A DNA stretch of 64,000 nt from Pseudomonadota bacterium (lineage in GTDB: Bacteria; Pseudomonadota; Alphaproteobacteria; Sphingomonadales; Sphingomonadaceae), in assembly GCA_039804665.1 (NCBI GenBank), contig JBDLVU010000001.1:11648-75647 (forward strand), in the 5' to 3' direction. A program made the position numbers and the translations under genes. This document shows, in pieces, positions 3,705 through 42,931 of this stretch (positions within the stretch are counted from its first letter, which is position 1; each line of letters begins with the position of its first letter). Below the pieces are notes generated by a model. The model was given only the letters and a program-made list of their open reading frames with translations, was not told the DNA's origin and did no database searches.

Positions 3705-4508
3705 ATGCAAGTCGGCAGCACCCTGCGCAGTTCCTCGCGCTGGCTCAACGATCCGCGCATCCGCGAATGGATGTCCACCGAAAGCCTGCGGCGCAACCGG
3801 CCCGATTATGGCCTGATCGAGGGGCTGCCGGTGCTGGTGCCCGCCATCGACGAAGTGCGTGACCGCGACCGGGCCGAACGCCTGATCCAGCAGGAGCGCC
3901 GCGACAACAAGGCGCTCGATCGCTGGTTCGAGGAACGCTTCGTTTCCACCTACACGCTCGAGGATCTTGGCCGGAATCCGGCCGGATCTCTCGGCCGGTT
4001 GCTCCACGATCACATGATCGCGCAGGACCTCAGCCTCGAACTGTTGACCCAGCGCCAGATGGACCCGACATGGGCGCCGGAGTCCGACCTTGACTACTTC
4101 ACGCTGCGCACCGGGCAGACCCACGATTTCGACCACCTGATAGGCGAATGCGGCTTTGACGTGATGGGCGAGATTTTCCCCACCGGCCTGCGCACCGGCA
4201 ACATGTTCGCGCACGTCTCGCCCGAACTGGCGGGTGAACTGCTGACCACCAACACGTTCATCACGTACCCGTGGATGATGCGGATCATGCTGCACTATCC
4301 GCAAGCCTGGCCAACGTTCTGGGCCAATTTCAGCCACGGCCACGATGTGGGGCAGCAATCGGCATGCCTGTTCACGGTGAAGTGGGAGGATTACCTCCAC
4401 CTCACCCCGGCCGAAGCGCGCGAAGCGCTGGGCGTTCGCGGATTTCGCGGCGCGGCAGACAACACCGCCGCCAGCCGCATCTTTGGCGAAGGCCGCCTGA
4501 TCATCTGA
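3705..4508 (+). CDS. Coq4-like metalloprotein (paralog 1)
   Basis: PAGSLG, THDFDH-x11-E, KWEDYLHL..AEAREALG. Confidence 0.75.
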   Translation: MQVGSTLRSSSRWLNDPRIREWMSTESLRRNRPDYGLIEGLPVLVPAIDEVRDRDRAERLIQQERRDNKALDRWFEERFVSTYTLEDLGRNPAGSLGRLLHDHMIAQDLSLELLTQRQMDPTWAPESDLDYFTLRTGQTHDFDHLIGECGFDVMGEIFPTGLRTGNMFAHVSPELAGELLTTNTFITYPWMMRIMLHYPQAWPTFWANFSHGHDVGQQSACLFTVKWEDYLHLTPAEAREALGVRGFRGAADNTAASRIFGEGRLII

Positions 4509-4524
4509 ACCGGCGCGGGCGCGG

Positions 4525-5091
4525 CTAACCCCGCGCCTGCGCGAACAACGCCAGCCGCGCATAGACCGCGTCGTCCGCGCCGGGGCGCCCGGTTTCGACG
4601 CCATCGTCGATGGCCGGCCCCTCGCCTCGCCGCAGCGCACGATCCTCGAACCAGTCCAGCACCAGCGAGCGCCGCCAGAACCGCCACACCCCGTCACGCT
4701 TGCGATAGCGGTCGAGATAGCGGCCCCCGGCCACGATTTCGCGCACCGGCGCGCCATCCGGCCCGCCATCGACCGTGCGGTGATAGGCCACCGTCTGCAA
4801 TTCGCCTTCCGCGCTGTCTCCATCGACAAGGAACAGCATGTTGCCGATCGAATGGACCGTGGCCGCCCAGTTGGCCATCATCGAGGGCAGCCATGCCACG
4901 TATTCGTCGGGGCCGCCCCGGAACATCGGCCCGTGATCGTCGATCGCGTCGTCGTGATACAGCGTGCGCAGCAACGCATAATCGCGTCGGTCGATGGCGT
5001 GGCAATAGGCCCACCCCAGCTGCTGCAGGGCAAACTGGTCGGCCACGTCCTGCGCGGTCCAGACGCGGGGAGAAAGCACCGGAGCGGTCAT
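4525..5091 (-). CDS. NTF2/SnoaL-like domain protein
   Basis: YCHAIDRRD...YHDDAIDDHG, GGRYLDRYRKRDGVWRF; AGAGGA RBS. Confidence 0.85.
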   Translation of the reverse strand: MTAPVLSPRVWTAQDVADQFALQQLGWAYCHAIDRRDYALLRTLYHDDAIDDHGPMFRGGPDEYVAWLPSMMANWAATVHSIGNMLFLVDGDSAEGELQTVAYHRTVDGGPDGAPVREIVAGGRYLDRYRKRDGVWRFWRRSLVLDWFEDRALRRGEGPAIDDGVETGRPGADDAVYARLALFAQARG

Positions 5092-5104
5092 GGCAAATCC
5101 TCTA

Positions 5105-5134
5105 TGCGCAAAATGTATCGCCATTCATTACGCA
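5105..5134. promoter_or_regulatory. 30-bp palindromic operator in a divergent promoter; TTGACA follows at 5140-5145
   Basis: TGCG-CAAAATGTATCGCCATTCATTA-CGCA. Confidence 0.7.
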
Positions 5135-5204
5135 TGGAATTGACATTATCCAAGTTTGGCGTTCAATTGCGTCGAAATAAAACACAACGATCTGGAGAGT
5201 CTCC

Positions 5205-7341: not shown

Positions 7342-7355
7342 AGGATGCAGACCCC

Positions 7356-8255: not shown

Positions 8256-8264
8256 AGTTGAGAA

Positions 8265-8303
8265 CGACCTAAGGGGGGTCTGGATCGACCTAAGCGGGTC
8301 TGG
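8265..8303. repeat. Tandem direct repeat of two palindromic units (candidate regulator boxes)
   Basis: CGACCTAAGGGGGGTCTGG (8265-8283) and CGACCTAAGCGGGTCTGG (8286-8303), each GACC...GGTC. Confidence 0.55.
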
Positions 8304-8325
8304 CGCTGGCAACAAGGACACAAAC

Positions 8326-8841: not shown

Positions 8842-8845
8842 GCGC

Positions 8846-11397: not shown

Positions 11398-12438
11398 ATG
11401 CCACCCACATCAATGCCGCTGGCCCGCGTCCATGGCCCGGGCGACGTACGGCTGGACACCGTTCCCATCCCCGCGTGCGGCGCGGGCGAGGTTCTGCTGC
11501 GCGTGGGCGCCTGCGGCGTGTGCGGCAGCGACCTTGGCTATATTGCGCAAGGCGGGCTGGGCGGCGTGGAGCCGCTGAAGCAGCCCCTGCCCATCGGCCA
11601 CGAATTTGCCGGAACCGTGGTGGCAGTGGGCGCAGGCGTTACCGGCATCGCGCCGGGCCTGCGCGCCGCGGTCAACCCGGATCGCGCCTTCATCGGCGGC
11701 GGTGGCCCAGACGGCGCGATGGCGCCCTATATCCGGATCGAAGGCGCAGAGCTGGGCGAGACGCTGTTTCCCCTGCCCGACAGCCTGTCCTTTGCCGAAG
11801 CCGCGCTGGCAGAACCGCTGTCGGTTGCGCTGCACGGCCTGCGCGTGGTGCGGGTGCGCGCGGCAGACAAGGTGGCCATCCTTGGCGCGGGACCGATCGG
11901 GCTGTGCACGCTGGTCATGCTGCACCATCTGGGCGTGCGTGACGTGGCCATTTTCGACCGCGTGGACGAACGGCTGGACCGCGCCCGCACGCTGGGGGCC
12001 GGCCTTGCGGTGAACGTGACGCGCGAATCCCTTCCCGATGCGCTCGCGCGGTTTCACGGCAGCGGCGAACGCTTTGGCGCGCCGTTCGTGGGCACCGATG
12101 TGTTCGTCGATTGCGCGGGCTCTGCCGCCGCGCTGCAAGAGGCGTTGGCGGTGGCGCGCTATCGCGCCCGCGTGGCGGTGATCGCGCTGCATCACACGCC
12201 GCTGGCGCTCGACCTGTGGCGCCTGATGGCCAACGAGATCACGATCTCGGGATCGGTCGCGGATGCGCGCTCGGAGGAATTCGGCGAAGCGGTGGCGATG
12301 CTTGGGCAAGGACGGCAGGACCTCTCCCCGCTGATCAGCCACCGCATCGATTTCGACCAGTTTCACGAAGCCCTTGCCACGGCAGCCGACGCAGCGCGCG
12401 CGGCCAAGGTGGTTCTGACATTCGCGGAGGCCGCATGA
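11398..12438 (+). CDS. Zinc-binding dehydrogenase (MDR), lacking the structural-zinc loop
   Basis: GVCGSD, GHEFAG, GAGPIG; no Cys4 loop. Confidence 0.85.
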   Translation: MPPTSMPLARVHGPGDVRLDTVPIPACGAGEVLLRVGACGVCGSDLGYIAQGGLGGVEPLKQPLPIGHEFAGTVVAVGAGVTGIAPGLRAAVNPDRAFIGGGGPDGAMAPYIRIEGAELGETLFPLPDSLSFAEAALAEPLSVALHGLRVVRVRAADKVAILGAGPIGLCTLVMLHHLGVRDVAIFDRVDERLDRARTLGAGLAVNVTRESLPDALARFHGSGERFGAPFVGTDVFVDCAGSAAALQEALAVARYRARVAVIALHHTPLALDLWRLMANEITISGSVADARSEEFGEAVAMLGQGRQDLSPLISHRIDFDQFHEALATAADAARAAKVVLTFAEAA

Positions 12439-13712
12439 CCAAATCGCCCCCCGTCATCCGCATCGACGACATGGCCGATCCGGTGCTGACCCCGGCGCTG
12501 GTCGCGGCGCGGCAAGGCCCGGCGGACCTGCCAGATTTCCTGACGCCCGATCAGGTGCTGGAGCACGCGATGGCGCAAACCGGGCTTTCGGACTTCGGCC
12601 CGGAGACCGGCTTTCGCCAGCGGCTGGCCGTGACCCTGCGCGCGCTTTACGAGGATGAAGGGCTGACGCGCGGCGGGCGGCTGAACATCATGGGACAGGC
12701 GATCCGCGTGATGGTCAACCGCCTGCGCATCGAGGATCTGCTCAAGCGCCATCCCGAAATCCTTGAAGTGCCCATCGATCGCCCGATCTTCATCGCCGGA
12801 CTGCCGCGTTCGGGCACCACGCATCTCGTCAACTGGCTGTCACGCGACGAACGGCTCAATTCGCTGACGCTGTGGGAATCCGAAGAACCGGTGCCCACGG
12901 TGCAGGTCGCGCCGGGCGAGACGGACCCGCGCATCCTGCGGTCGGCGGCGGTGTGGGAAGCGTTCGGCGCGATGCTGCCGCACATGGCGGCCATGCACGA
13001 AATGGCCGCCAACGACATCCACGAGGACAATGAGCTGATGTTCATGGACCTCAATTGCTACAACTGGGAATTCCAGGCCCGGTTGCCGCGCTGGATCGAC
13101 CATTACCTGTCGCACGACCGCACCGGATCATATGCCTACGAGAAAAAGGTGCTGCAGGTCATCGCGTGGCATCGCGGGGTAAAGCCGGGCGAGCCCGGGC
13201 GTCGGCGCTGGCTGCTGAAATCGCCGCAGCACATGGAAAACCTCTCCGCGATCAGGGCGGTGTTTCCCGATGCCACGATGGTCGTCACGCATCGCGATCC
13301 GGTGGACGTGCTGCGGTCGTTGACCACGATGCTGGGGTATTCGGACCGCATCCGGCGTGATCCGGTCGATCCCCCTGCACTGGCCCGGCTATGGGCCGAT
13401 CGCATCGAGCGGCTGCTGCGCGAATGCGTGGCCCAGCGCGAAAGCTGGGGGCCGGCGCAATCGCTGGACGTGCTGTTTCACGATTACATGGCAGACCAGC
13501 AAGGCATGGCGCGCCGCATCTATGCGCTGGCCGGGCTGGACCTGCCGCGCGAAACCGAGGCGCGGCTGATGGGCTATCTTTCCGAGAACCCGCGCCATGC
13601 CCACGGCAAGGTGATCTACGACCTTGAAGGCGTGTTCGGCATGAACCTGGCCGAGCTGCGCCAGCGCTTCGCATTTTATTACGACCGCTTTCCGGTCCGG
13701 CAGGAGAACTGA
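12435..13712 (+). CDS. Sulfotransferase family protein
   Basis: PIFIAGLPRSGTT (5'-PSB loop), LKSPQH, THRDP; ATGA overlap. Confidence 0.85.
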   Translation: MTKSPPVIRIDDMADPVLTPALVAARQGPADLPDFLTPDQVLEHAMAQTGLSDFGPETGFRQRLAVTLRALYEDEGLTRGGRLNIMGQAIRVMVNRLRIEDLLKRHPEILEVPIDRPIFIAGLPRSGTTHLVNWLSRDERLNSLTLWESEEPVPTVQVAPGETDPRILRSAAVWEAFGAMLPHMAAMHEMAANDIHEDNELMFMDLNCYNWEFQARLPRWIDHYLSHDRTGSYAYEKKVLQVIAWHRGVKPGEPGRRRWLLKSPQHMENLSAIRAVFPDATMVVTHRDPVDVLRSLTTMLGYSDRIRRDPVDPPALARLWADRIERLLRECVAQRESWGPAQSLDVLFHDYMADQQGMARRIYALAGLDLPRETEARLMGYLSENPRHAHGKVIYDLEGVFGMNLAELRQRFAFYYDRFPVRQEN

Positions 13713-13714
13713 TC

Positions 13715-14962
13715 ATGGCCGCAACCGATAACCCGCGCGCCAACATGTCCCGCGAGCGGCTCGTTTCCGGGCAGGCGTGGGACGATTTCTGCGATACGCT
13801 GAAACTGGCGGGGCGCCACATCGCAGCGGTCGACGGGCCTTTGTCCGATCTCGACCGCGCCGAATGGTATCGCTTCATGACCCGGCTGGCGCGGTCGAGC
13901 ATGGAGCGGCTGATCGAGAATGCCGAGCCCACCCGGCCGCGCCTGCGCGACATGGTGTGGCGGCAGTCGATCAACGTGCAGACGGTGGATCAGGACCACC
14001 TGATGTGCCAGTTCGACGAAGCGCGCGATTACCGCATCACCGGCACGCGCGGGACCATCCCCTATTTCGTGATGGCGGTGCTGACCTGCCCCGCGCCCGA
14101 TGCGCCGGGGGCCGAGGATTGGGCCGCGCACGGCATCGAGGGGCTGAAGCGGTTCGATCCGTCGAACCTCAAGACCACCGGCTTTCTTGCCAGCCAGCAG
14201 CTGCATGTGGAGGCAGACGGCACCTTTGAGCTGGTCCTGTCGCAAAACGATCCGGGCGACGGGCGCAACTGGCTGCGGCTGACGCCCGAGACGAACTGCA
14301 TCATGATCCGGCTGGTGTGGAGCGACCGCGTGCACGAGGTGGCACCGGCGATGACCATCGAACGCGTGGACGGCGCCCCGCCAGAACCGGTCACGCCGGC
14401 GCTGATCGCCGATGGGCTGGCGTGGACGGGGCAGGCCGTGCTTGGCTATGCCGAACTGGTGCGCAACTGGTGGCAGGGCACGCAGGGCAACTTTTCGGCG
14501 CGGCTGAACCGGCTGGATTACAGCCGCGCGCAATACCTTTCCAACGGCGGCGTGCCCGACAGGCATGTTGCCTTCGGCGGCTGGGAAAAGCGCGGGGACG
14601 AGGCGCTGGTGCTGGAATTCACGCCGCCTCCCTGCGAATACTGGAACTTCCAGCTGTGCAACATCTGGCAGGAAAACCTCGATACGTTCGAGGACGGCAA
14701 CGGCTGGATCAACAACACCCGCCATGTCGCCGAAAGCGACGGGACCGTGCGCGTGGTGATCGCGGAACGCGATCCCGGCGTGGGGGGCAACTGGATCGAC
14801 AGCTATGGCCACGAACGCGGCATCTGGGGCCTGCGCTTTGTCCAGACGCAGCAGACCGCGCCGGTGAAGCTGTGGCGCGTGCCGCTGGCCAGCCTTGAGA
14901 GCCGGGGCCTCGCCGCGCTCGATCCCGCCGTGGCGGTCGCCACCGGCCAGTTCGTGGATTGA
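13715..14962 (+). CDS. DUF1214-domain protein
   Basis: AWDDFC..LK, YRITGTRG, DGTFELVLS, YWNFQL.NIWQE.LD, DPG...NWID..GH..G. Confidence 0.7.
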   Translation: MAATDNPRANMSRERLVSGQAWDDFCDTLKLAGRHIAAVDGPLSDLDRAEWYRFMTRLARSSMERLIENAEPTRPRLRDMVWRQSINVQTVDQDHLMCQFDEARDYRITGTRGTIPYFVMAVLTCPAPDAPGAEDWAAHGIEGLKRFDPSNLKTTGFLASQQLHVEADGTFELVLSQNDPGDGRNWLRLTPETNCIMIRLVWSDRVHEVAPAMTIERVDGAPPEPVTPALIADGLAWTGQAVLGYAELVRNWWQGTQGNFSARLNRLDYSRAQYLSNGGVPDRHVAFGGWEKRGDEALVLEFTPPPCEYWNFQLCNIWQENLDTFEDGNGWINNTRHVAESDGTVRVVIAERDPGVGGNWIDSYGHERGIWGLRFVQTQQTAPVKLWRVPLASLESRGLAALDPAVAVATGQFVD

Positions 14963-19027: not shown

Positions 19028-20770
19028 ATGAACGACATCCTCATCAGCAACGGCACCGTTGTGGACGGGACCGGCGCACCGCCGTTCAAGGCCGACGTGC
19101 GCGTGCGCGACGGCGTGATCGTGGAAGTGGGCCAGGGGTTGGCCTCGCAGGGCGAGCGCGTGTTCGACGCCAGCGGCTGCCAGGTGACGCCCGGCTTCAT
19201 TGAAAGCCACACGCACTATGACGGCACGATGTGGTGGCAGCCCGATCTCGATCCGCTGCCCGGCTATGGCGCGACCACGATGATCCTTGGCAATTGCGGC
19301 TTTTCGCCCGCGCCGCTGCACAAGTACATGCCCGCGCAGCGTGAGATGATCGGCATCTTTTCGTTCTTCGAGGATATCCCGGAAGGCCCGTTCATGACGA
19401 ACCTGCCGTGGGACTGGAACAAGTGGTCGGAATATCGCGCCTCGTCCGAACGCAACGTGCGCGTGCCGCTGAACTATGCGGCGTATGTCGGCCACATCGC
19501 CATCCGCCTTGCCGCGATGGGCGTGGACGCGTGGGAACGCGAAGCGACCGCAGACGAAATCGCCAAGATGGCCGAACTGCTCGACGACGCGCTGGCAGCG
19601 GGCGCGCTGGGCCTTTCGGACAACATGCACGATCATGACGGGCAGAACCGTCCGGTGCCCTCGCTGAAGGCCAGCGATGCCGAATTTTCCGCGCTGTTCG
19701 ACGTGATGGAGAAGTATCCGGGCTGCTGCTATCAGGTGATCGTCGACACCTTCATGCGGATGACCGGCCCGGCCAACCTTGAACGGCTGTCGCACCTGCT
19801 CGCCGGGCGGAAGATCAAGTGCCAGATCGCCGGCGCGATCCCCACGCTCGATTTCCAGAAGGGCATTCTGCCCGCGATGCAGGAATCGGTGCGCAAGATG
19901 CGCGAAGCCGGGGTGGACGTGTGGCCGGGCTTTGCCCACGTTTCGCCCACCTCTACGCTCAGCCTCGTCAAGTCGCTGATCTTCGCGCAGTCCAACGACT
20001 ATGTCTGGCACGAAGTGGTGCTGGAAGACGATCATGCCAAGAAGGCCGCCCTGCTGGCCGATCCGGCATGGCGTGCCCGGGCGCGCGAAAGCTGGGATAC
20101 CAAGGCGTGGGATCATTCCCCGCTGAAGAACCCGCAGGAGTTGTTCCTGCTCGACAGCGAAAACGGCACGGGTCCGCTCAATATCACGCTCAAGGAATAT
20201 GCCGACAGCGTTGGCCTGCATCGTTCCGACGCAATGGCCGACTGGATCATCAAGAACGGCACGCGTTCCACCGTGCACATGGCGCCGTTCCCCAAGGACG
20301 AGGGACTGACGCTGGAACTGATGCTCGACCCCAGGACGGTGGGCAACATCTCGGACGCCGGCGCGCACCTGCAGATGCTGTGCGGCGGGGGCGAGAACGC
20401 GCTGCTGCTGACGCAATACGTCCGCGATGAAAAGAAGCTGTCGCTGGAACAGGCCGTGCACGTGATGACCGGCAAGCTGGCGCAGCACTTCAACCTCAAC
20501 GATCGCGGCGTGATCGCGGTGGGCAAGCGCGCCGACATCGCGGTGTTCAACATGGACGAGATCCAGCGCCGCGAAATGGAAAAGGCGTTCGACGTGCCCG
20601 ATGGCAAGGGCGGCACTACCTGGCGCTTTACCCGCAAGGCGATGCCGACACGGCTGACGCTGGTGAACGGCGTGCCGACCTTTGAAAACGGCGCCTATAC
20701 CGGCGCGACGCCGGGCGAGTTCCTCTCACCCGCCAACGACGAGGCTGCCTTGGCCGAAGCGGCGGAATAA
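19028..20770 (+). CDS. N-acyl-D-amino-acid deacylase family amidohydrolase
   Basis: VTPGFIESHTHYD, GNCGFS, SDAGAH, DRG.IAVGKRADI. Confidence 0.85.
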   Translation: MNDILISNGTVVDGTGAPPFKADVRVRDGVIVEVGQGLASQGERVFDASGCQVTPGFIESHTHYDGTMWWQPDLDPLPGYGATTMILGNCGFSPAPLHKYMPAQREMIGIFSFFEDIPEGPFMTNLPWDWNKWSEYRASSERNVRVPLNYAAYVGHIAIRLAAMGVDAWEREATADEIAKMAELLDDALAAGALGLSDNMHDHDGQNRPVPSLKASDAEFSALFDVMEKYPGCCYQVIVDTFMRMTGPANLERLSHLLAGRKIKCQIAGAIPTLDFQKGILPAMQESVRKMREAGVDVWPGFAHVSPTSTLSLVKSLIFAQSNDYVWHEVVLEDDHAKKAALLADPAWRARARESWDTKAWDHSPLKNPQELFLLDSENGTGPLNITLKEYADSVGLHRSDAMADWIIKNGTRSTVHMAPFPKDEGLTLELMLDPRTVGNISDAGAHLQMLCGGGENALLLTQYVRDEKKLSLEQAVHVMTGKLAQHFNLNDRGVIAVGKRADIAVFNMDEIQRREMEKAFDVPDGKGGTTWRFTRKAMPTRLTLVNGVPTFENGAYTGATPGEFLSPANDEAALAEAAE

Positions 20771-21919: not shown

Positions 21920-24364
21920 ATGACACAGGCAAGCATCCGCGCCCATCTTGCGCGTACCACCATCCTCGCTGCGGGGCTGGTCCCCGCCTTGCTGGCTGCC
22001 GCACCGGCCCGCGCCGCCGAGGCCGCACCCGAGGCCGCGCCCGCGCCGCAATCGCACGGCAGCGACTCCCAGGTGCAGGAAATCATCGTGACCGCGCAAC
22101 GGCGCGAGGAAAGCCTGCAAAAGGTGCCGGTGGCCGTTACCGCCATCAGCAGCGCGCAGCTGGAAAACCTGCGCGTAACGAGCGTGCGCAACCTTGCCGG
22201 GCTGGCGCCGAGCTTGCAGATCAACTCGCAAGGGATGCAGTCCAACCCGACCATCATCATTCGCGGCGTCGCATCGGGCGCGTCGAGCAACTCGGTCGAC
22301 CCCAAGGTCGGGATTTACATCGACGGCGTCTACATCGGCCGCGCGGTGGGTTCGCTGCTGGAGTTTGGCGACATCCAGCGAATCGAAGTGCTGCGTGGTC
22401 CCCAAGGCACGCTGTTCGGCCGCAACGCCACATCCGGCGCGATCAGCGTGACGACCGCCGCGCCCAAGGGCGAATGGGGCCTGCGCGCTATAGCCTCTGT
22501 CGGCAACGACCACGCCTATCGCGGCAAGGTGGCGGTGGACCTACCGCAGATCGGGCCGTTTTCGGTGCGCCTGTCGTACCTGCACGACCAGATCCGGGGC
22601 GACGTGACCAACTTGCTGGCGGGCAAGGGGTTGAACATTTCTCTGCGCGCGCCCGAATTCGGCACGCAGCAGTTTGCATCGCGGCTGGGTGAGCGCAATG
22701 TCGACGGCGGGCAAGTGGCCGTGCGGGGCGAGTTCGGCAACCTGACCGCCGATTACCGCTTCGATTACACCGACACGCGCGCTTCGGGCCGGGCGATGCA
22801 GAACCTGGGCGTGATCCCGGATGCCTCGGGCCAGTTGCTGGCGCCGATCGTGGCGCTGCAACCCTATTTCGGAGGCATCACCAACTATGGCGTGACCGGG
22901 CCGCTCGATGCGGTTGCCGCCGCGACCAGCACCGAACACACCGTGACGCAGGGCCACAGCCTGACGCTGACGCTGCGCGCGAGCGATCACTTCACGATCA
23001 AGGCCATCACCGCCTACCGCAAGTTCCGGCAGGACCCGGTGATTTTCGACCTTGGCGCGGCGGGCGGCCTGCGCTTTACCTTCCAGCAGCTGGGCGCGCT
23101 GATCACGCCGGGCCTGACTCCGGAACAGATTCAGGCGGCGCTGTTCAACCCGGCCAACGTGCCCGGGCCGAACGACTACTTCTTCCCGCTGCTGACCGCG
23201 CGCGCCACCAGCCAGACCCAGTTCAGCCATGAATTGCAGTTCCAGCTGTCCGACGATGCCTATCAGCTGACGGCCGGGCTGTTCTATTTCCACGAACGCT
23301 CGCCCGGCACCGAAGTGCTCGGCATTCTTGAACCAACGCCTTCGGCCACGGTGGTGCCGAGTTTCTTCGATTCCATCTTCGGCAGCGGCATCACCCGTAC
23401 GGTGGGGCGCAACAACAGCTTTGCCGGCTATGGCCAGCTGACCTGGCACCTGACCGACACCTTCGACCTGACCGGCGGCCTGCGCGGCACGATCGACGAC
23501 CGCGAATTGCTGATCTCGGCCATCTCGGGCGCACAGGGGGGATCGCTGGGCGTTGGCGACTACAAGGTTTCGTACAAGAAACTGACCTACACCGGCATTG
23601 CCACGTGGCGGCCGACACCCGACACCACGCTGTTTGCCAAGATCGCCACGGGCTATGTCTCCGGCGGCATTCTCAGCGGCATTCCCTATAAGCCTGAAAA
23701 CCTCACTTCGTACGAAGTGGGCGCCAAGACGCAGTTCCTCGACAACCGTGTGCGGCTGAACGTTTCAGCCTATTACAACGACTACAAAGACCTGCAGACG
23801 CAGAACTTCATCAACGGGAAGCAGTTCTTCGACAACGCCGGCAAGGCCAAGATCAAGGGCTTCGAGGCCGAAACCGATATCGTGCCGGTGCGCGGGCTGA
23901 CGCTTTCAGGCAGCCTTGCCTACACCGATTTCAGCTACAAGCAGTTCGTGCTGAACGGCGTGGACGTGGCATCGTTCGCGCGGCCGACGTACTTTTCGAA
24001 GTGGACCGCGCGCGCGGCGGCGCTTTACAACTCGCCCGAATTCACAAGCGGCGGAGCGCATGTCACCGCGTCGATCGAAGCGCGTTTCCGCAGTTCGTAC
24101 TACCTGACTTCAACGCCGCTGCGGAACATCCTGACAGGGCAGCCGGCGCTGGAGGACCAGAACCGGCAACCTTCGTACTGGCTGGTGAACGGGCGCCTTG
24201 GCATTGCCGACCTGCCCGTGGGCGGTGGCAAGGTCTCGCTGTCGGCGTTCGGCGACAACCTGTTCGACAAACGCTACATCAGCTTTGGCGCGCCGGTGCT
24301 GCTGTTCACCGGAAACTATGAACGAGGCCGCACGTACGGCCTGGAACTGAGCATGACGCTGTAA
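21920..24364 (+). CDS. TonB-dependent receptor
   Basis: Signal peptide, EIIVTAQRRE TonB box, IEVLRGPQGTLFGRNA, C-terminal RTYGLELSMTL. Confidence 0.95.
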   Translation: MTQASIRAHLARTTILAAGLVPALLAAAPARAAEAAPEAAPAPQSHGSDSQVQEIIVTAQRREESLQKVPVAVTAISSAQLENLRVTSVRNLAGLAPSLQINSQGMQSNPTIIIRGVASGASSNSVDPKVGIYIDGVYIGRAVGSLLEFGDIQRIEVLRGPQGTLFGRNATSGAISVTTAAPKGEWGLRAIASVGNDHAYRGKVAVDLPQIGPFSVRLSYLHDQIRGDVTNLLAGKGLNISLRAPEFGTQQFASRLGERNVDGGQVAVRGEFGNLTADYRFDYTDTRASGRAMQNLGVIPDASGQLLAPIVALQPYFGGITNYGVTGPLDAVAAATSTEHTVTQGHSLTLTLRASDHFTIKAITAYRKFRQDPVIFDLGAAGGLRFTFQQLGALITPGLTPEQIQAALFNPANVPGPNDYFFPLLTARATSQTQFSHELQFQLSDDAYQLTAGLFYFHERSPGTEVLGILEPTPSATVVPSFFDSIFGSGITRTVGRNNSFAGYGQLTWHLTDTFDLTGGLRGTIDDRELLISAISGAQGGSLGVGDYKVSYKKLTYTGIATWRPTPDTTLFAKIATGYVSGGILSGIPYKPENLTSYEVGAKTQFLDNRVRLNVSAYYNDYKDLQTQNFINGKQFFDNAGKAKIKGFEAETDIVPVRGLTLSGSLAYTDFSYKQFVLNGVDVASFARPTYFSKWTARAAALYNSPEFTSGGAHVTASIEARFRSSYYLTSTPLRNILTGQPALEDQNRQPSYWLVNGRLGIADLPVGGGKVSLSAFGDNLFDKRYISFGAPVLLFTGNYERGRTYGLELSMTL

Positions 24365-29018: not shown

Positions 29019-30713
29019 TCAATCGTTGGAGCCGGTCATGTCGCGCGCGGCGATATAGCCGAAGGTCATCGCCGGACCGATGGTGACGCCCGCGCCCGGA
29101 TAGCTTTCCCCCATCGCCGAAGCAGTGGTGTTGCCCACTGCATAAAGCCCGGGGATCAGATGCCCATCGGCGCCGACCACCTGGGCCTTGGCGTTGGTAA
29201 CAAGGCCGCCATTGGTGCCGATATCGCCGGGATAGATCGGCATGGCATAGAACGGAGCCTCGGTCAGGGGGCGCAGGCACGGATTGGGTTGATGGCGATA
29301 ATCGCCGTACATCTTGTCATAGGCCGCTTCGCCCCGATGATAATCGGGGTCTTCGCCAACGGCGGCGCCCTTGTTGAAGCGCGCGATGGTAACCGTCAGC
29401 GTGGCCGGATCGACGCCCATCGCGGTTGCCAGCTCCTCCACTGTGCGGCCCTTCTTCATGATCGTCTTGACCGCACCGGGCTGAAGCCAGTCGGGCACCA
29501 GCGGCAACAGGGGGCCCATCGGGAACTGGTGACGATAGCGCGCATCGAACACCATCCAGCTGGGTGACGCATCGCCATGGTGATGCGCGCGGCGTGCCAT
29601 CTGCTGGCCCACGATGTGGTAGGACGCAGCCTCGTTGAGATAGCGCTGGCCCTTCTGGTTGACCATGATGCACCCAGGCAGGGCGCGCTCGATGGTCACC
29701 AGCCGCCCGCGATCCTCGCCCGGAACGTAGAACACCGGCGCAGCCCAGGCGGACTGCATGTTCATGGTATTCGCGCCGATCGCCTGCCCGGCCACGATTC
29801 CATCGCCGGTGTTGCTGGTCACCCCGCCCGAAAGCCGGGTGCTGGGATAAAGCGGCGCGTGCGTTTCGCGCATCAGCTGATTTTTGTCGAACCCGCCGGC
29901 GGCCAGTACCACGCCCTTGCGCGCAGCAATGCGAAACGGCTTGCCATCGCGAGTAACTACGATCCCCGTCACGCGACCATCGGCATCGCGCACGACGGAC
30001 TGCATCGGCGTGGACAGCCACAACGGCACGCCTGCTTCCTTCAGCGCGAGCCGCAAACCGCCTGTCAGCGCGTTGCCCAGCGTCAACCGCCGATCCTTGC
30101 GCGAGGTGAAGCGCAGCGGCCAGTCGAGCCAGTACTTCGCCATGTTGACGACCAGATGGGTGAACCAGCCCTTGGTGCGATAAAGCAGCTCGTACGTTTC
30201 GGCGAAGGTCCATTGCAGGTAGCCGAACAGGCTGGCCGCGGGCGAAGGCATGCGCTGGGTCTTCAGGTCATCGCCCAGCAGCTTGCCGTCGAACAGTTCG
30301 GGCAGGTGCGTCCGGAAACCGGTGGTCGATCCGCCCGGGTTTTCCGCGTGGTAATCGGGATAAGGCTGCGCGGTATAGACCACCTGTGTGTTGGCGGTGA
30401 CCCAGCGCAGCATGGCGGCAGCATTATCGACATAGGCGCGGATATTTTCATCCGGGACGTTGTCGGCCGACAAGGCGCGGACATAGCGGAACGCGTCGTC
30501 GAGGTTGTCCTCGAAACCCGCCGCCTTCGCCTGATCGCTGCCCGGAATCCAGATGCCCCCGCCCGAGGTTGCGCTGGTGCCGCCCCACAACTTGTCCTTT
30601 TCGACGATCAGTACATCGGCATGGTTGCGGGCCGCCACCAGGGCCGACAACATGCCCCCCGCGCCCGATCCCACGACCACCACGTCGACCGTCTTGTCCC
30701 AGTTGTCGCTCAT
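29019..30713 (-). CDS. kstD: 3-ketosteroid delta1-dehydrogenase
   Basis: GSGAGG FAD loop, TSATSGGGIW, PYPDY, NEAASY and YPGAG.TIG (KstD Tyr119/Tyr318/Tyr487 contexts). Confidence 0.8.
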   Translation of the reverse strand: MSDNWDKTVDVVVVGSGAGGMLSALVAARNHADVLIVEKDKLWGGTSATSGGGIWIPGSDQAKAAGFEDNLDDAFRYVRALSADNVPDENIRAYVDNAAAMLRWVTANTQVVYTAQPYPDYHAENPGGSTTGFRTHLPELFDGKLLGDDLKTQRMPSPAASLFGYLQWTFAETYELLYRTKGWFTHLVVNMAKYWLDWPLRFTSRKDRRLTLGNALTGGLRLALKEAGVPLWLSTPMQSVVRDADGRVTGIVVTRDGKPFRIAARKGVVLAAGGFDKNQLMRETHAPLYPSTRLSGGVTSNTGDGIVAGQAIGANTMNMQSAWAAPVFYVPGEDRGRLVTIERALPGCIMVNQKGQRYLNEAASYHIVGQQMARRAHHHGDASPSWMVFDARYRHQFPMGPLLPLVPDWLQPGAVKTIMKKGRTVEELATAMGVDPATLTVTIARFNKGAAVGEDPDYHRGEAAYDKMYGDYRHQPNPCLRPLTEAPFYAMPIYPGDIGTNGGLVTNAKAQVVGADGHLIPGLYAVGNTTASAMGESYPGAGVTIGPAMTFGYIAARDMTGSND

Positions 30714-37188: not shown

Positions 37189-37214
37189 CGCTTCAACGAT
37201 GATGCAAAGGTCGT

Positions 37215-38300
37215 TCAGGCCGCCTTGCCCTTGGCACCGGGCCGGCGATCCACAGAGACGTGCACACCGTTCACGCGGCTTTGGAAATCACCCGCATTGG
37301 CGCGCGGGTTATAGAACTGACGGTACCAGATGCGTCCCTTGTGGAACGGCCCGTCGTCGGGTACCTGCAGAATCGAGATCGCGGCTTCCTTGTACTTCCA
37401 CAGCTCGAAATCCTGCGCGAAAGCGTCGAGCGCCGTATCCTGATACCCGCGCGCGATGGCAAGACCCGCCTTGTCGGCGCGCGTATCCGAAACCTTCACC
37501 GCCAGCGCATACCACACCCGCACCTCGCCATCTTCGACGGGCGTGTTGCAGATCATGATCACGCTGGGATGCTGGCCTTCCATCTTCGACAACAGGATGC
37601 TGGGCCCGGTATACCATGTGTCATTTTCCAGCAGGTGGGTGTTATCCACCAGCGTGCGATGGCCGGACCCCAGTCGCTGCATGATCACATGGTCGCGGAA
37701 TTCGTTTTCGAAATAGACGATGTCCGTGCTGCCATGAACCGGCATGAAGTGGGCAAGGTCGGTCATGTTGTCGAGGATTTCCTGCGGATGGATCGGCAGC
37801 GTGCCGAGGTGATCCAGCCGCCAGCGCACCCAGCCCTGCTTCTCGCCATCCCATTCCGCAAAGGCGGGCAGGTCATAGTCCGGATCACCGCCTTCCATGT
37901 CGTGCCACATCCAGATGCAGCCCGCCTTTTCGACGACCTTGTGCGATTTCACGCAGGCAGCCTTGGGAATGCCGTGGGTGGAATAGGGAATGTCGTCGCA
38001 CTGGCCGGCCGCATTATAACGCCAGCCATGCGCCGGGCAGCGCAGCGAATCCCCTTCGACATGCGTACCGTCCTTCACCACATACGACGTGGTGTTGCGC
38101 GCCAGATGCACCCGCATGTGTGGGCAATAGGCATCGAGCAGGATCGGTCTGCCGCTCGCCTTGCCACGATAAAGCACCATGTCCTTGCCAAAGAAGCGCA
38201 CCGCCTGCGGGGTGCTGTTCACCTCATCCGCCACGGCGATCATGAACCATCCACGCGGGAAGGCGAGCGGGCCGAGGCCATAGTCTGCGGTCGTTGCCAT
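37215..38300 (-). CDS. kshA: Rieske oxygenase, KshA-like
   Basis: FPRGW, CPH...CPAHGW, DNMTDLAHFMPVH (D-x3-D-x2-H-x4-H), F.QD..LW.YK, DGP....R.WY.QFY. Confidence 0.8.
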   Translation of the reverse strand: MATTADYGLGPLAFPRGWFMIAVADEVNSTPQAVRFFGKDMVLYRGKASGRPILLDAYCPHMRVHLARNTTSYVVKDGTHVEGDSLRCPAHGWRYNAAGQCDDIPYSTHGIPKAACVKSHKVVEKAGCIWMWHDMEGGDPDYDLPAFAEWDGEKQGWVRWRLDHLGTLPIHPQEILDNMTDLAHFMPVHGSTDIVYFENEFRDHVIMQRLGSGHRTLVDNTHLLENDTWYTGPSILLSKMEGQHPSVIMICNTPVEDGEVRVWYALAVKVSDTRADKAGLAIARGYQDTALDAFAQDFELWKYKEAAISILQVPDDGPFHKGRIWYRQFYNPRANAGDFQSRVNGVHVSVDRRPGAKGKAA

Positions 38301-38314
38301 GGTATGTTCTCCGG

Positions 38315-39508
38315 TCAGATGAAGCTGTCGGTGTTGGGCGCGCCCAACATTACCGCGCCAAAGTTGCGCCCCACGGTGTTGGGGTTGTTGGCCACGTGCG
38401 TGCGGCCGGTGTGGATGTCGCAAAACGTCCGCGCGATCGGGTTGCCGCGATAGATTCCATCCGCACCCGATAAATAGAACATCCGGCTGATCAGGTCCGC
38501 ACACCGCCCCGCGATCTGCGCCGACTGGAAGCGGAAGCGCAGCCGCGTTTCCAGATCGGCCTGATCCCCGCGCCGGGCGTGGTCGTTCAGCACGCCAAAA
38601 TTGCGGAACAGCACCGTCTTCATCTCGTCGATGGCCGATTGCGTTTCGGCAATCACCGTCTGCACGTCTGGATCGCCGGCAATGCTGGTCAGGGTGTTGT
38701 TGCTTTTGCGCTTGGCCCCCGTTTCCTTGAACAGATCGAGCGCCCCTTGCAGCGCGCCGATCGACGAGGACGACACCGCGCGTACAAAGACCTGCCCGAA
38801 CGGCAGTTTATACAGCGGCCCCGGATTGTGCTGCGCGCCGGGATTGGTCGCGGCAAAGCCATCCTTGGACCGGTGCGTGCGATGCACCGGCACGAACGCG
38901 TCGTTCACGGTCACGTCATGGCTGCCGGTGCCGCCAAGGCCGATGGTGTTCCAGATCGGCAACACGGTAAAATCCGGGCGCGGGACAAGGAACGTCCAGA
39001 AATCGGGCACGCCCGTTTCGGGGTCCTTGACCAGACCGCCCAGAAACGCCCAGTCGCAATGGTCGACACCGCTGGAAAAGCCCCAACGCCCGGAAATCCG
39101 GTATCCGCCATCCACCGCAGTCACTTCGGCGCGCGGCATATAGGAGGAGGAGATCAGCGTGGTGGCATCCTCGCCCCACACATCCTCCTGCGCCTGCGGG
39201 TGGAACAGCGCCAGCTGCCAGTTGTGCACGGCCACCACGCCCAGCACCCAGGCCGACGACATGCAGCCTTCGGCCACCTTCATCTGCACGGCATAGAACG
39301 CCTCAGGGTCCATCTCGTAGCCGCCGTAGCGCGCGGGCTGGAGTATCTTGAAGAATCCGGCTTCCTGGAAATCCCGGATCGTGTCGTCAGGCACCCTGTT
39401 CTGCGCGTCGCACTGGCCGGCGCGTTCGCGCAGCACCGGCACCAACGCCTCCGCGCGCGCAACGAGTTGTTCCGCAGTCGGCATCTTGATCGTCTCCATC
39501 ACAGTCAT
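38315..39508 (-). CDS. hsaA: 3-HSA 4-monooxygenase oxygenase subunit (HsaA/TesA1-like)
   Basis: VAVHNWQLALF..QAQEDVWGED....ISSSY, W.FSSG.DHC.W, GL.GTGS, DIHTGRTHVAN. Confidence 0.75.
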   Translation of the reverse strand: MTVMETIKMPTAEQLVARAEALVPVLRERAGQCDAQNRVPDDTIRDFQEAGFFKILQPARYGGYEMDPEAFYAVQMKVAEGCMSSAWVLGVVAVHNWQLALFHPQAQEDVWGEDATTLISSSYMPRAEVTAVDGGYRISGRWGFSSGVDHCDWAFLGGLVKDPETGVPDFWTFLVPRPDFTVLPIWNTIGLGGTGSHDVTVNDAFVPVHRTHRSKDGFAATNPGAQHNPGPLYKLPFGQVFVRAVSSSSIGALQGALDLFKETGAKRKSNNTLTSIAGDPDVQTVIAETQSAIDEMKTVLFRNFGVLNDHARRGDQADLETRLRFRFQSAQIAGRCADLISRMFYLSGADGIYRGNPIARTFCDIHTGRTHVANNPNTVGRNFGAVMLGAPNTDSFI

Positions 39509-39524
39509 CACTGCTCTCCCGTCA

Positions 39525-40445
39525 TCAGGCCGCGTCGGCCAGTTGCGCCCGTTCATCGGCGCCAAAGCCCACGCTGAAGTCGTGTCCCCACAGGCTCACC
39601 TGCGTGAATTCGAACTCGGTGTGCCGGTCCCAGTCGACCTGCAGCCCGCCAAAGCCGTATTCGAGCGCGAAGCCGCCCGGCGTTGCGACGTAAAAGCTGG
39701 TCATGTGGTCGTTGGTGTGTTTGCCCAGCGTTGCCATCAGCCGGGCATCGGCACGCAGCATCCGGTCATACGCGCGCCCCACTTCATCAAGGTTCGGCAC
39801 TTCGACCATCATGTGCACGCACCCGGCGGGCACCGGCCCTTCGAACAGCGCCAGACTGTGGTGTCGGCCATTGCCGCAGTGCAGGAAATCGATGCGCATC
39901 GCCGGGCCGTCCGGCCCCATCGGTCGGTGCACCATGAAGTCCGACACGCCGAGGCCCAACACATCAATCAGGAAATCGCGGCAGGCGTCGATCTGTGGCG
40001 CAGGCAGCACAACGTGCCCATAGCCGAGATCGCCCGTCACAAACCCCTTCACCGCCTGCGGAGACACGAACCGGTCGAAGGCAGAAACATAGCCGAACGC
40101 CAGTTCGTGCCGATTGCCTGCCGGGTCGGTGAACCACACCATGTCCACAACGTGGCGCAATGCGCGCTCCGCCGGCGTCGAATGGGTAAAGGCCACGTCC
40201 TTTTCACCCAGTTCGACCAGCGCGGCTTCGAACGCCCGGCGCGTGCGCAGCTCCCACCCACTGGCGCGGTAGCCATCGCTTTCGCCCTGCTCCACAAAGA
40301 TACGGCCGGTGCGGTCGTCCATGCGCAGCGCGATGCCGCCCGGAACCTCATGCGCGGAAAACCCGGCGATGTCCTCACCGAACCGAACCCAGCTGGCCGG
40401 GTCTGTCGCGGTGACCACGCTATAGCCAAGCGCAGCAACTTCCAT
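39525..40445 (-). CDS. hsaC: Extradiol dioxygenase (HsaC/TesB-like)
   Basis: FVTGDLGYGHVVL, RHHSLAL, HMMVEV, TLGKHTND.MTSFY..TPGGF.LEYG. Confidence 0.8.
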   Translation of the reverse strand: MEVAALGYSVVTATDPASWVRFGEDIAGFSAHEVPGGIALRMDDRTGRIFVEQGESDGYRASGWELRTRRAFEAALVELGEKDVAFTHSTPAERALRHVVDMVWFTDPAGNRHELAFGYVSAFDRFVSPQAVKGFVTGDLGYGHVVLPAPQIDACRDFLIDVLGLGVSDFMVHRPMGPDGPAMRIDFLHCGNGRHHSLALFEGPVPAGCVHMMVEVPNLDEVGRAYDRMLRADARLMATLGKHTNDHMTSFYVATPGGFALEYGFGGLQVDWDRHTEFEFTQVSLWGHDFSVGFGADERAQLADAA

Positions 40446-40537
40446 GAGCATCCTCCTCTTCCGGCTTGCCGGATCGAGGCTGACTATGTCGATACCCGTA
40501 CCCGCGATAATTGACGGGAATCAAACGAACCAAATTT

Positions 40538-40567
40538 TGCGTAGATTAAGTGAAATTTTTCTTCGCA
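40538..40567. promoter_or_regulatory. 30-bp palindromic operator upstream of hsaC-hsaA-kshA
   Basis: TGCG-TAGATTAAGTGAAATTTTTCTT-CGCA. Confidence 0.7.
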
Positions 40568-40645
40568 TTTAATCACCAAATAAGGGGTGAATAGCAAACT
40601 CAAGGCAGACTCTGACAATCCGCGCACGCACCGCCCGGCGGAGCG

Positions 40646-41920
40646 TCAGGCTCCGGTCGCGCGCAGATCCAGAGCTGATTCGTAGCCGTGCAACATGATC
40701 TGCGCGGCCCGGGCAGCCTGCAGCGCAGCCTCGTGAACCGATAGCCGCCGCCCCGTGGCGAACAGACGGCTGCCCTGCAACGCCAGAACCAGCGCCTGCC
40801 GCGCCAGCCATCGCGCATCGGATAGCCCGGTCCGCGCACCGATCCAGTCGGCCAGTGGTGCGATCCAGGGCGCCCGCACCGCATCGTGAATCTCGCGCGC
40901 CAGCGCCGGTTCACGGCGTGAGGCCGAAATGGCTGCGCGGTGCAATTCCAGCGAGGGCGATCCTGCCAGCGTGGCAATCGCAGCAGCAAGGAACGGCTGG
41001 AGCGCAGCCTCCCCCGCATCATCGAGCAACGCGGGCACATCGGCCTGCCGCACCACCTGATCCGCCAGATCGCGCAGCACCGCCCGGAACAACCCATCCT
41101 TGCTCGCAAAGTGACGGTATAGCGTGCCCCGCCCCACTTGCGCCGCTGCTCCCAGCGCAGCCAGATTGGTGCCTTCGTACCCCACATCGAGGAACTGCGC
41201 CGCGGCAACGTCCAGCAAGCGGCGCACGTGCGGCAGCGGTGATGCAGCGGGCGGTGGCGGGGTCTCGTCCGGGCGCAACCACACGCCTCCATGCGGGTCC
41301 AGAGCGGGCAAGCCACCTTCGAACAATGCGGCCACCCGCGCCGCCACCCGGGCGCGCAGCGCGTCCGACAGCGGCGGGAAACCCAGCAGCAAAGCAGGCC
41401 CTTCAACCGCCAGCGAACCGAAATCGAGCGCGAAGTCCAAAGGCACCGTCACCCCCGGCCGGCGCACGCGCGCATGCGCCTCCAGCGCGGTGCGCAAGGG
41501 CTCCAGTCGCCCCCATTGCGCCAACTGCAGCGTGTGCGCAAAGTCCGGCATGCGGTCGCCCAACCCCGCGATGAGCCAGAGCGGGCTGAGCAGCCCTTCC
41601 TCCACCGCCGAATCGCCGATCGCCCGCGCCATGTCGGCAAGCCGTGGCGCGTCACCTGCCCCAAGCGCTGCGGTGCGGGTCGCAAAACGGCCGGCCATTT
41701 CGTCCAATGCTGCGCGGAACAAGGCCTGCTTGTCGGGGAAATGGCGGTAGATCGTTTCCTTGCTGACCCCGGCCCGGCGCCCGATCTCGTCGATGCTGAC
41801 CCCGGCAAATCCGTCTGCCACAAACGCCGCACGCGCTGTTTCCAACAGGTGCACAACCCGCGCGGAGAGCCCCACGCCCTCGCCATCTGCCAATTCGTGC
41901 GGTTCGCAGCCGTGTTCCAT
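40646..41920 (-). CDS. Regulator with two tandem TetR modules
   Basis: Two HTHs, SIDEIGRRAGVSKETIYRHF and NLAALGAAAQVGRGTLYRHF; start could be 41986. Confidence 0.8.
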   Translation of the reverse strand: MEHGCEPHELADGEGVGLSARVVHLLETARAAFVADGFAGVSIDEIGRRAGVSKETIYRHFPDKQALFRAALDEMAGRFATRTAALGAGDAPRLADMARAIGDSAVEEGLLSPLWLIAGLGDRMPDFAHTLQLAQWGRLEPLRTALEAHARVRRPGVTVPLDFALDFGSLAVEGPALLLGFPPLSDALRARVAARVAALFEGGLPALDPHGGVWLRPDETPPPPAASPLPHVRRLLDVAAAQFLDVGYEGTNLAALGAAAQVGRGTLYRHFASKDGLFRAVLRDLADQVVRQADVPALLDDAGEAALQPFLAAAIATLAGSPSLELHRAAISASRREPALAREIHDAVRAPWIAPLADWIGARTGLSDARWLARQALVLALQGSRLFATGRRLSVHEAALQAARAAQIMLHGYESALDLRATGA

Positions 41921-42003
41921 CGGGCGTCCTATACCATCCCGCGCCCACGATGCACGGCCCGGCTCATATTGCAGCCGGTATGTCATCCGGGCCTTGCGAA
42001 TAA

Positions 42004-42026
42004 CCGAACGGTTCGATACCGTTCGG
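42004..42026. promoter_or_regulatory. Candidate TetR operator
   Basis: Perfect CCGAACGGT-N5-ACCGTTCGG between the double-TetR gene and the Coq4-like/amidohydrolase operon. Confidence 0.65.
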
Positions 42027-42082
42027 ACAAAGATCAGCAGAATCAATTGCTGGTCCTCGACAATTCCCATGGGAGATGCCTG

Positions 42083-42931
42083 ATGGACGACGTACCCTAT
42101 CTCGCGCGGGGCGTGCTGCCGGTGGAGACGCCCAGCAGCGTGCTCGTCTCGTCTTCGAAATACCTGAACAATGCCGCGCTGCGCGATTGGCTCGCCATGA
42201 TCCTCTTGCGCCGGAATGGCGCGGACAAGCCGCCGCAGTCCGAGATGTGGGAATTTCTGCCCATCCTTGAGAGCCTGCGCGATCACGCCCGCATCGAGCA
42301 GATGTTCGAGGACGAACGGCGGGTAAACCCCGCGCTGGATGCGTGGTTCAGCGAAGGGTTCGTCTCCACCTTCACCATCGACGATTTCGCCGGCTATGCG
42401 CCGGGCACGCTGGGCGGGATGTTCCACGCCCAGATGACCGGGGGCGGTTACGAAATCCAGATCGTGCCTTTTGCAGAACCAAAGACGCAGCTTGAATTCT
42501 TCAACCTGCGATCAGGCCAGACCCACGATTTCGAACACATCCTGTGCGGCGGCGGATTCAACTTCATGGGTGAACTGGTGCCGTACTGGTATCGCCTGAC
42601 GAACGTGTTCAAGTTCATCCGCAACCCCGAACTGGCCGGCGAACTCAGCGTGCTCTCCATCTTCGGATCGCTGCGCTACACCGTGCGCACCATGCTTCAT
42701 TACCCGCAGGTCTGGCCCACCGCGGTGGGCTGCATTCAGCGGGGCATCAGGGTGGGGCAGGAAAGCGACGCCTTGTTCCTTGCGAAACTGGAGGACTATT
42801 TCCACCTGCCGCTGGAAGAGGCGCGCGTCGCGCTGGGCGTCCGGGGGGCGGTAGACGTCGATACCGAACGCGAGGGCGCCTTCTGGGCCGAACGCGCTCC
42901 GCTCGATCCGGTTCTGGAGGCAGCGGAATGA
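42083..42931 (+). CDS. Coq4-like metalloprotein (paralog 4)
   Basis: APGTLG, THDFEH-x11-E, KLEDYFHLPLEEARVALG. Confidence 0.75.
   Translation: MDDVPYLARGVLPVETPSSVLVSSSKYLNNAALRDWLAMILLRRNGADKPPQSEMWEFLPILESLRDHARIEQMFEDERRVNPALDAWFSEGFVSTFTIDDFAGYAPGTLGGMFHAQMTGGGYEIQIVPFAEPKTQLEFFNLRSGQTHDFEHILCGGGFNFMGELVPYWYRLTNVFKFIRNPELAGELSVLSIFGSLRYTVRTMLHYPQVWPTAVGCIQRGIRVGQESDALFLAKLEDYFHLPLEEARVALGVRGAVDVDTEREGAFWAERAPLDPVLEAAE

Follow-up and report, generated by a model that had tools for sequence, protein, structure and literature searches.

The 64,000-nucleotide stretch analysed here (hereafter the window) lies on contig JBDLVU010000001.1 of a Sphingomonadaceae metagenome-assembled genome (MAG) that is 83% complete, and carries four paralogous genes for Coq4-like proteins, designated A to D. 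These paralogues are part of a sharply distinct Coq4 subfamily, which is very likely a catabolic one tied to steroid-type degradation and for which a role in ubiquinone biosynthesis is very unlikely. The whole reading, in which this steroid-linked, non-ubiquinone subfamily would include decarboxylation of a steroid-derived acid, is given a probability of about 0.35.

A distinct Coq4 subfamily

The four genes, also called by an independent metagenome annotation of the contig, are as follows (PF05019 being the Pfam Coq4 family).

3705..4508, plus strand: Coq4-like paralogue A, 267 aa, HDFDH-x11-E, PF05019 28.6 bits
20857..21744, plus strand: Coq4-like paralogue B, 295 aa from the first ATG (start put at 20866 in the earlier note), HDIEH, PF05019 28.3 bits
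24413..25231, minus strand: Coq4-like paralogue C, 272 aa, HDLEH, PF05019 29.5 bits
42083..42931, plus strand: Coq4-like paralogue D, 282 aa, HDFEH, PF05019 17.0 bits

An earlier note, made from the sequence alone, had described four open reading frames (ORFs) sharing HDxxH-x11-E, G(S/T)LG, a C-terminal E..R..L segment and an N-terminal serine block, and both the ORF check and the alignment bear this description out. Its coordinates also stand, to which the minus strand of C, for which no strand had been given, is to be added. The paralogues could be aligned over their full length, with B, C and D 25-41% identical to A, and D 40-50% identical to A and C. Columns without variation among them cover the HDxxH-x11-E ligands and the G(S/T)LG turn, as well as R..L at the C-terminus and a serine-rich block at the N-terminus. 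Their match to PF05019 (cut-off of 22.9 bits) was weak (17-30 bits) and confined to the final two thirds of the profile. The Pfam search that the earlier note had proposed recovered A, B and C above the cut-off and left D under it, yet D scored 475.8 bits on the subfamily profile. No NCBIfam model matched any of the four.

The extent of the subfamily was surveyed in 151 genomes of the same GTDB family. With the subfamily profile, 15 related genomes yielded another 64 genes, which scored 182-447 bits, with no scores between 83 and 182, and this recovery and gap argue that the subfamily is not a chance likeness; the other Coq4-like genes across the 151 genomes scored 25-48 bits. A tree split the 65 subfamily genes from eight other Coq4-like genes with a support of 97. 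The HDxxH-x11-E motif was kept in all 65, and its fourth position was acidic in 62 of them (E in 57, D in 5), compared with L, W, H or Y in Coq4-like proteins of these bacteria that lie outside the subfamily and in two solved homologues. The N-terminal block SS.L.SSS.YLN....R was at least 80% conserved in the subfamily.

The other sphingomonad Coq4-like proteins share the Pfam family and the motif spacing with the subfamily. They differ from it by a closer fit to PF05019 and a canonical HDL(L/W/H)H, are mostly single-copy, occur in many genomes of the family, and stand outside the subfamily in the tree. The window genome (G000) possesses five Coq4-family genes, four in the window and a fifth, of this other kind, on the small contig C252 (618-1457, locus L010), with an HDLLH motif, 35 bits on the subfamily profile, and PF05019 scores of 43.5 bits as translated protein and 42.6 bits in the genome scan. 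The neighbours of this fifth gene are a HAD hydrolase and a DUF72 gene, and it belongs to no catabolic operon. As a separate observation, four proteins of 515-544 aa (P0124-P0127) contain two tandem Coq4-like units and may be either true fusions or merged calls of tandem genes; tandem Coq4-like gene pairs occur in genomes G347 and G014.

Predicted fold and metal motif

A profile of A-D retrieved two solved proteins by sequence, PDB 3MSQ (E 2.6e-20) and PDB 6E12 (E 1.6e-10). The AlphaFold model of D, computed with 51 diverse relatives as input, was all-helical, with a predicted local distance difference test (pLDDT) score of 93.6 and a predicted template modelling (pTM) score of 0.89. Foldseek searches with this model returned 3MSQ and 6E12 on top and no other match below E 0.3. 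The window proteins are thus predicted to have the Coq4 fold of these two structures, an outcome that favours the structural assignment of the earlier note; about 24 N-terminal and 25 C-terminal residues are without counterpart in the solved structures. Residues H152 and E164 were unchanging across 51 diverse subfamily members.

The solved homologues, cyanobacterial Alr8543 (6E12, which holds bound magnesium and a fatty acid) and a Nostoc punctiforme protein (3MSQ), are 14-23% identical to the paralogues. They have HDi(Y/W)H where the paralogues have HDx(E/D)H, and are plasmid-borne in cyanobacteria, outside steroid clusters. Eukaryotic COQ4 (human, yeast) has PF05019 and the HDxxH-x11-E motif in common with the paralogues. 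Unlike it, the latter are multicopy, patchily distributed and located in catabolic operons without ubiquinone context, and the fourth motif position of their subfamily is acidic; they also have roughly 24 additional residues at the N-terminus and 25 at the C-terminus.

Distribution and age of the clades

The subfamily was present in 16 of the 151 family genomes, with 1-8 copies, usually 2-8. It was found in one of 400 further genomes sampled across the class (208 families) and in none of 400 sampled across the phylum; since these samples include 2 and 15 members of the window family, respectively, this represents one of ~785 genomes outside the family. Among 15 billion proteins clustered at 50%, 65 clusters matched at E<=1e-30. 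Named hosts include Novosphingobium, Sphingobium, Croceicoccus estronivorus, Sphingobium estronivorans, Caenibius, Erythrobacter and Polymorphobacter, and some of the genes are carried on megaplasmids such as pNL2 of N. aromaticivorans DSM 12444, on which four places matched, Saro_3710 being one of them. In databases they are labelled hypothetical protein, Coq4 family protein or ubiquinone biosynthesis protein COQ4. A 53%-identical homologue at locus L165, on a 233-kb contig of a MAG labelled Thauera (another class), represents either horizontal transfer or a binning error. The window stretch itself was present in public freshwater and groundwater metagenome DNA runs, with no RNA run among those listed.

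One genome of another genus possesses orthologues of all four paralogues with identities between 85% and 91%, and the orthologue of A in G146 (91% identity) again lies behind a short-chain dehydrogenase/reductase (SDR) gene. A recent lineage-specific burst of duplication was rejected, as the clades are deep and each has such an 85-91% identical orthologue in another genus. Of the lineage-expanded subfamily described in the earlier note, lineage restriction and multiple copies are retained, whereas recent expansion gives way to old clades with cross-genus orthologues. The phylogeny and neighbourhood survey across the family, which that note had also put forward, placed the subfamily apart from the other Coq4-like genes (support 97), with the type of operon partner tracking the tree.

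Operon partners of the Coq4-like genes

In the window, each paralogue lies beside catabolic genes, and the neighbours named in the earlier note were right for all four: SDR and zinc-dependent alcohol dehydrogenase (Zn-ADH) for A, Amidohydro_3 and TonB receptor for B, AtuA and SDR for C, and Amidohydro_3 for D.

1855-2880, plus strand: Zn-ADH (Pfam ADH_N/ADH_zinc_N), 5' of the SDR and A
2914-3678, plus strand: SDR (adh_short_C2), 26 bp before paralogue A
19028..20770, plus strand: Amidohydro_3 protein (PF07969), D-aminoacylase-like, 580 aa, partner of B, 86 bp ahead of it
21920..24364, plus strand: TonB-dependent receptor (Plug and TonB_dep_Rec_b-barrel), 3' of paralogue B
25245-27068, minus strand: AtuA family protein with fused AtuA_ferredoxin (PF07287 and PF23544), 13 bp from C
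27071-27835, minus strand: SDR, upstream of AtuA in the run ending with C
27867-28985, minus strand: 372-aa protein without Pfam or NCBIfam family, head of the run 372-aa protein / SDR / AtuA / Coq4-like C
40646..42070, minus strand: double-TetR regulator, 474 aa, two TetR_N domains, divergent from paralogue D
42928..44664, plus strand: D-aminoacylase-like amidohydrolase (PF07969), 578 aa, start overlapping the D stop by 4 bases

Paralogue A is the final gene of a run AP_endonuc_2 / Zn-ADH / SDR / Coq4-like. In S. herbicidovorans and N. aromaticivorans, the position of the double-TetR gene is taken by long TetR genes (1251 and 1263 bases; 416 and 420 aa).

The partners were further surveyed in the 20 kb around 61 subfamily genes of 15 other genomes, where genes were called by a third-position GC rule, clustered by BLAST, and labelled via the Pfam-annotated genes of the window. 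The following neighbours were counted (OYE, old yellow enzyme).

Amidohydro_3: adjacent to 20/61, within the 20-kb locus of 30/61
AtuA: adjacent to 11/61, within the locus of 12/61
SDR: adjacent to 7/61, within the locus of 35/61
TonB receptor: adjacent to 6/61, within the locus of 27/61
KshA-type Rieske oxygenase: adjacent to 0/61, within the locus of 13/61
Zn-ADH: adjacent to 1/61, within the locus of 12/61
OYE: adjacent to 2/61, within the locus of 11/61

Amidohydrolase and AtuA partners share the strand of the Coq4-like gene, with gaps that are small or overlapping, and in all 11 cases of adjacency AtuA is directly upstream. The type of partner follows the tree: an amidohydrolase is upstream in the B clade and downstream in the D clade, AtuA is upstream in the C clade and one more, and an SDR is upstream in the A clade. 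The order amidohydrolase then Coq4-like was found in 16 of 20 full-length pairs, and orthologous pairs of the D type overlap by 4 and by 1 base.

Coq4-like proteins and their amidohydrolase partners diversified together, with a Mantel r of 0.69 between their distance matrices (20 pairs; reached in 0 of 2000 permutations). The pairing is therefore old, although the correlation is partly confounded by shared descent. The HxH and Cys metal ligands of the amidohydrolases (H62, H64 and C91) were invariant in 23 partners. The nearest solved relatives of the D partner are D-aminoacylases (E 7e-32), and as this likeness is restricted to residues 4-199, no substrate is deduced from it. A complex prediction of D with its amidohydrolase scored under the mark and carries no weight either way. 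The amidase Nov2c229, left unexplained in Sphingobium sp. Chol11, was considered as a counterpart of the amidohydrolase partner and was not confirmed, the S. herbicidovorans locus being unlike Chol11 cluster 2.

The window AtuA protein is far from any atu or CoA-carboxylase genes and has no matching NCBIfam model. It matches PDB 9ERQ weakly (E 0.005), an entry deposited as AtuA family protein, citramalate lyase subunit A; 9ERQ/9EVF is the only solved AtuA relative. Citramalate lyase is described in a preprint (10.64898/2026.01.16.699985) as splitting citramalate directly into pyruvate and acetate, and the likeness hints at a possible C-C cleavage independent of coenzyme A (CoA), which is taken here as a mere lead.

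Association with steroid-type catabolism

The location of the paralogues in catabolic operons tied to steroid-type catabolism, as proposed in the earlier note, was supported by both position and phyletic distribution. A KshA_C match was found within 20 kb of 25 of the 64 subfamily genes (at most 3.8 under random placement) and within 10 kb of 15 of them (at most 1.9). KshA_C matches at E<=1e-40 were confined to 14 of the 151 genomes, every one of them a carrier of the subfamily; the other two carriers have KshA_C matches near 1e-31. Contrasts within genera or families were concordant (G050 vs G149, G133 vs G029, and G347 vs G166, the last from the sole other family with the subfamily).

Named relatives have similar surroundings. 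In Novosphingobium sp. ES2-1, an estrogen degrader, the genes around the D orthologue are annotated as FadD3 family acyl-CoA ligase, steroid Delta-isomerase, 4-hydroxy-2-oxovalerate aldolase (dmpG) and acetaldehyde dehydrogenase. The surroundings of two copies on pNL2 include SDRs, NTF2 proteins, TonB receptors and a KstD-like FAD-binding protein.

The literature search found no paper linking Coq4 to steroid degradation, Sphingobium or Novosphingobium, in agreement with the statement of the earlier note that no role in steroid degradation had been described, and no paper linking AtuA with steroids. The Chol11, tomatine and C. tardaugens estradiol papers make no mention of Coq4. The available part of the C. 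tardaugens RNA-seq table, whose locus tags are unmapped to genes, contains no Coq4 or AtuA label.

The catabolic island around the paralogues

The window as a whole is a catabolic island. Its main further features are listed below.

12435-13712 and 13715-14962, both plus strand, and further left, outside the window: island genes with a Sulfotransfer_3 domain, plus one DUF1214 gene
29019..30713, minus strand: KstD-like flavoprotein, 564 aa, whose best NCBIfam models are 3-ketosteroid-delta-1-dehydrogenases (514 bits, cut-off 789)
37215..40451, minus strand: KshA-like Rieske oxygenase, HsaA-like oxygenase and HsaC-like extradiol dioxygenase
51058-52212, plus strand: protein without Pfam or NCBIfam family, paralogous to that at 27867-28985 (~372-384 aa)
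54976-57120, plus strand: fusion of OYE and pyridine-nucleotide-disulphide reductase, 714 aa

The window contains two KshA-type Rieske oxygenases, one of them truncated by its left edge. The KshA-like protein has Rieske and KshA_C domains (196 bits), and KshA_C (PF19298) matches of 196 and 190 bits lie in and just left of the window; the strong KshA_C matches of the genome are three, all on the window contig. On NCBIfam models the HsaA-like protein scored 390 bits for HsaA, its best model (cut-off 450), and the HsaC-like protein 246 bits for HsaC (cut-off 450), the latter marginally below its score on the biphenyl-2,3-diol 1,2-dioxygenase model (249 bits). As these steroid markers fall short of the equivalog cut-offs, the island is named steroid-type only, and is not taken as proven steroid catabolism.

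The window also encodes a cytochrome P450, two Baeyer-Villiger-type monooxygenases, two OYE genes, at least 12 SDRs, many SnoaL/NTF2 proteins, two TonB receptors and several TetR, AraC and AsnC regulators. The OYE-reductase fusion has an architecture akin to that of bile-acid BaiCD-type and 5-beta-delta-4-ketosteroid dehydrogenases. A sulfotransferase-like gene is directly 5' of the Coq4-like gene in two other genomes and on pNL2, and four Coq4-like genes elsewhere have relatives of the 372-384 aa proteins in their 20-kb loci.

Ubiquinone biosynthesis, a very improbable role

According to database annotation (GO ubiquinone biosynthetic process), members of the subfamily would be ubiquinone C1 decarboxylases, here replacing UbiD. 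Their fold and motif are those of COQ4, NCBI labels relatives accordingly, by inference only, and UbiD was found neither in the window genome at its 83% completeness nor in 146 of the 151 family genomes. On this last point, the premise of the earlier note that alphaproteobacteria rely on Ubi proteins for ubiquinone is only partly right and holds poorly for this family. To our knowledge, all members of the sphingomonad family make Q-10, as judged from chemotaxonomy. No match to the Pfam Coq4 family was found in 72 of the 151 genomes, the other 79 having one. Neither Coq4 in general nor the subfamily, present in 16 genomes, can thus be the general decarboxylase of the family, and since UbiD was not found in 146 genomes and Coq4 was found in 79, much of the family is without a recognised enzyme for removing the ring carboxyl in ubiquinone synthesis. 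The missing UbiD does not rescue a ubiquinone role for the subfamily, because the subfamily is itself missing from 135 of the 151 genomes.

A ubiquinone gene would be expected wherever ubiquinone is made, usually as a single copy and near ubi or coq genes. The subfamily instead reaches 8 copies in one genome and shares its operons, many of them on megaplasmids, with TonB receptors, TetR regulators and catabolic enzymes. In the window, no ubi gene was found among the Pfam-annotated calls, as the earlier note had stated. Substitution for UbiD is on these grounds extremely improbable.

Proposed function

Each paralogue represents an old lineage kept in an operon with its own partner, an amidohydrolase, an AtuA-family protein or an SDR. 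The Coq4-like protein would most likely bind a hydrophobic acid derived from a steroid within the lipid tunnel that characterises the fold, where a metal at HDx(E/D)H-x11-E would act as a Lewis acid and transform the bound acid, most probably by decarboxylation. This step would come right after or before that of the partner enzyme, and the partners could plausibly make or consume carboxylates or beta-keto acids. Metal binding, catalysis, substrate class and reaction are inferred from the chemistry of COQ4, the ligands of 6E12 and the strict conservation of the metal ligands in every clade, which together point to a metal-dependent enzyme acting on a hydrophobic acid. The decarboxylation, hydration or binding of steroid/terpenoid acids put forward in the earlier note likewise extrapolates from the activity of COQ4. 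Ancestral animal COQ4 performs a Zn-dependent decarboxylation of lipid-tailed hydroxybenzoate in vitro, an activity abolished in motif mutants (PMC7615680), and in vivo genetic evidence indicates an O2-requiring oxidative decarboxylation (10.1101/2023.11.13.566839).

Several points weigh against this proposal. In the known 9,10-seco pathway, no step has an evident need for a decarboxylase of this kind. Over half of the subfamily genes have no KshA-type gene within 50 kb, and the counts of co-occurrence with KshA ignore shared ancestry and shared megaplasmids. The KstD-, HsaA- and HsaC-like genes of the window are all under their equivalog cut-offs (514/789, 390/450 and 246/450), so that the true substrate could be another polycyclic lipid. 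The presence of one family beside several unrelated enzyme types also fits a non-catalytic helper. Finally, as the fourth motif position is acidic in 62 of the 65 genes and hydrophobic elsewhere, the chemistry may differ from that of COQ4.

The last of these points bears on a somewhat unlikely alternative, that the proteins serve the same catabolic pathways as metal-dependent enzymes but catalyse another reaction, such as hydrolysis, isomerisation, hydration/dehydration or, at a site with one or two metals, an O2-dependent step. The extra acidic residue of HDx(E/D)H, absent from canonical, cyanobacterial and other sphingomonad Coq4, would suit such a change, as would the chemical diversity of the partners. 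The Coq4 site also resembles those of binuclear metallohydrolases, and the oxidative decarboxylation reported in vivo requires O2 (Pelosi preprint, 10.1101/2023.11.13.566839). Against it, decarboxylation is the sole biochemistry demonstrated for the fold, and nothing favours a specific other reaction.

Non-catalytic carriers or scaffolds, which would hold a steroid intermediate in the lipid tunnel and pass it to, or organise, the neighbouring enzyme, are rather unlikely. A scaffold role was first proposed for yeast Coq4, and COQ4 was long regarded in this way (10.1101/2023.11.13.566839). Such a role would agree with the fatty acid in 6E12, the co-diversification with amidohydrolases and the occurrence of the same family beside unrelated amidohydrolase, AtuA, SDR and sulfotransferase-like enzymes. 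However, the four metal ligands are kept in 65/65 genes and in all deep clades, which is less to be expected of a simple lipid carrier.

Returning to the decarboxylation proposal, a quite improbable extension of it is that the Coq4-like proteins, with AtuA or amidohydrolase, would form a Sphingomonadaceae machinery that shortens or removes side chains or ring carboxylates of steroids and needs neither thiolase nor aldolase. An AtuA-type lyase or hydrolase would free a carboxylate that the Coq4-like protein would decarboxylate, with no CoA ester involved.

Implications

Novel elements are the four-clade picture, the pairings with AtuA, SDR and sulfotransferase-like genes, the restriction to one lineage, the co-occurrence with KshA at the level of genomes, the diversification in step with a partner and the HDx(E/D)H signature. 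The ubiquinone-biosynthesis annotation of the subfamily is very probably wrong and would mislead metabolic reconstructions.

If the improbable extension to a machinery free of thiolase and aldolase is true, the Coq4 fold gains a second, catabolic enzymology, and human COQ4 gains soluble bacterial models. The enzymatic role of COQ4 was only recently assigned and its mechanism is disputed between plain and oxidative decarboxylation, with no eukaryotic COQ4 structure as of a 2023 preprint (10.1101/2023.11.13.566839). A soluble bacterial subfamily with the same predicted fold and metal site would be an independent system for learning the capabilities of the Coq4 fold.

According to work on Sphingobium sp. 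Chol11 by the Philipp group, Sphingomonadaceae degrade the bile-salt side chain by an unexplained mechanism, one that involves neither aldolytic nor thiolytic cleavage. Conserved candidates that co-occur with steroid genes are the Coq4-like genes together with their partners, AtuA and the amidohydrolase, all absent from the Chol11 discussion, and the subfamily points to an undescribed catabolic job for the Coq4 metal-motif family.

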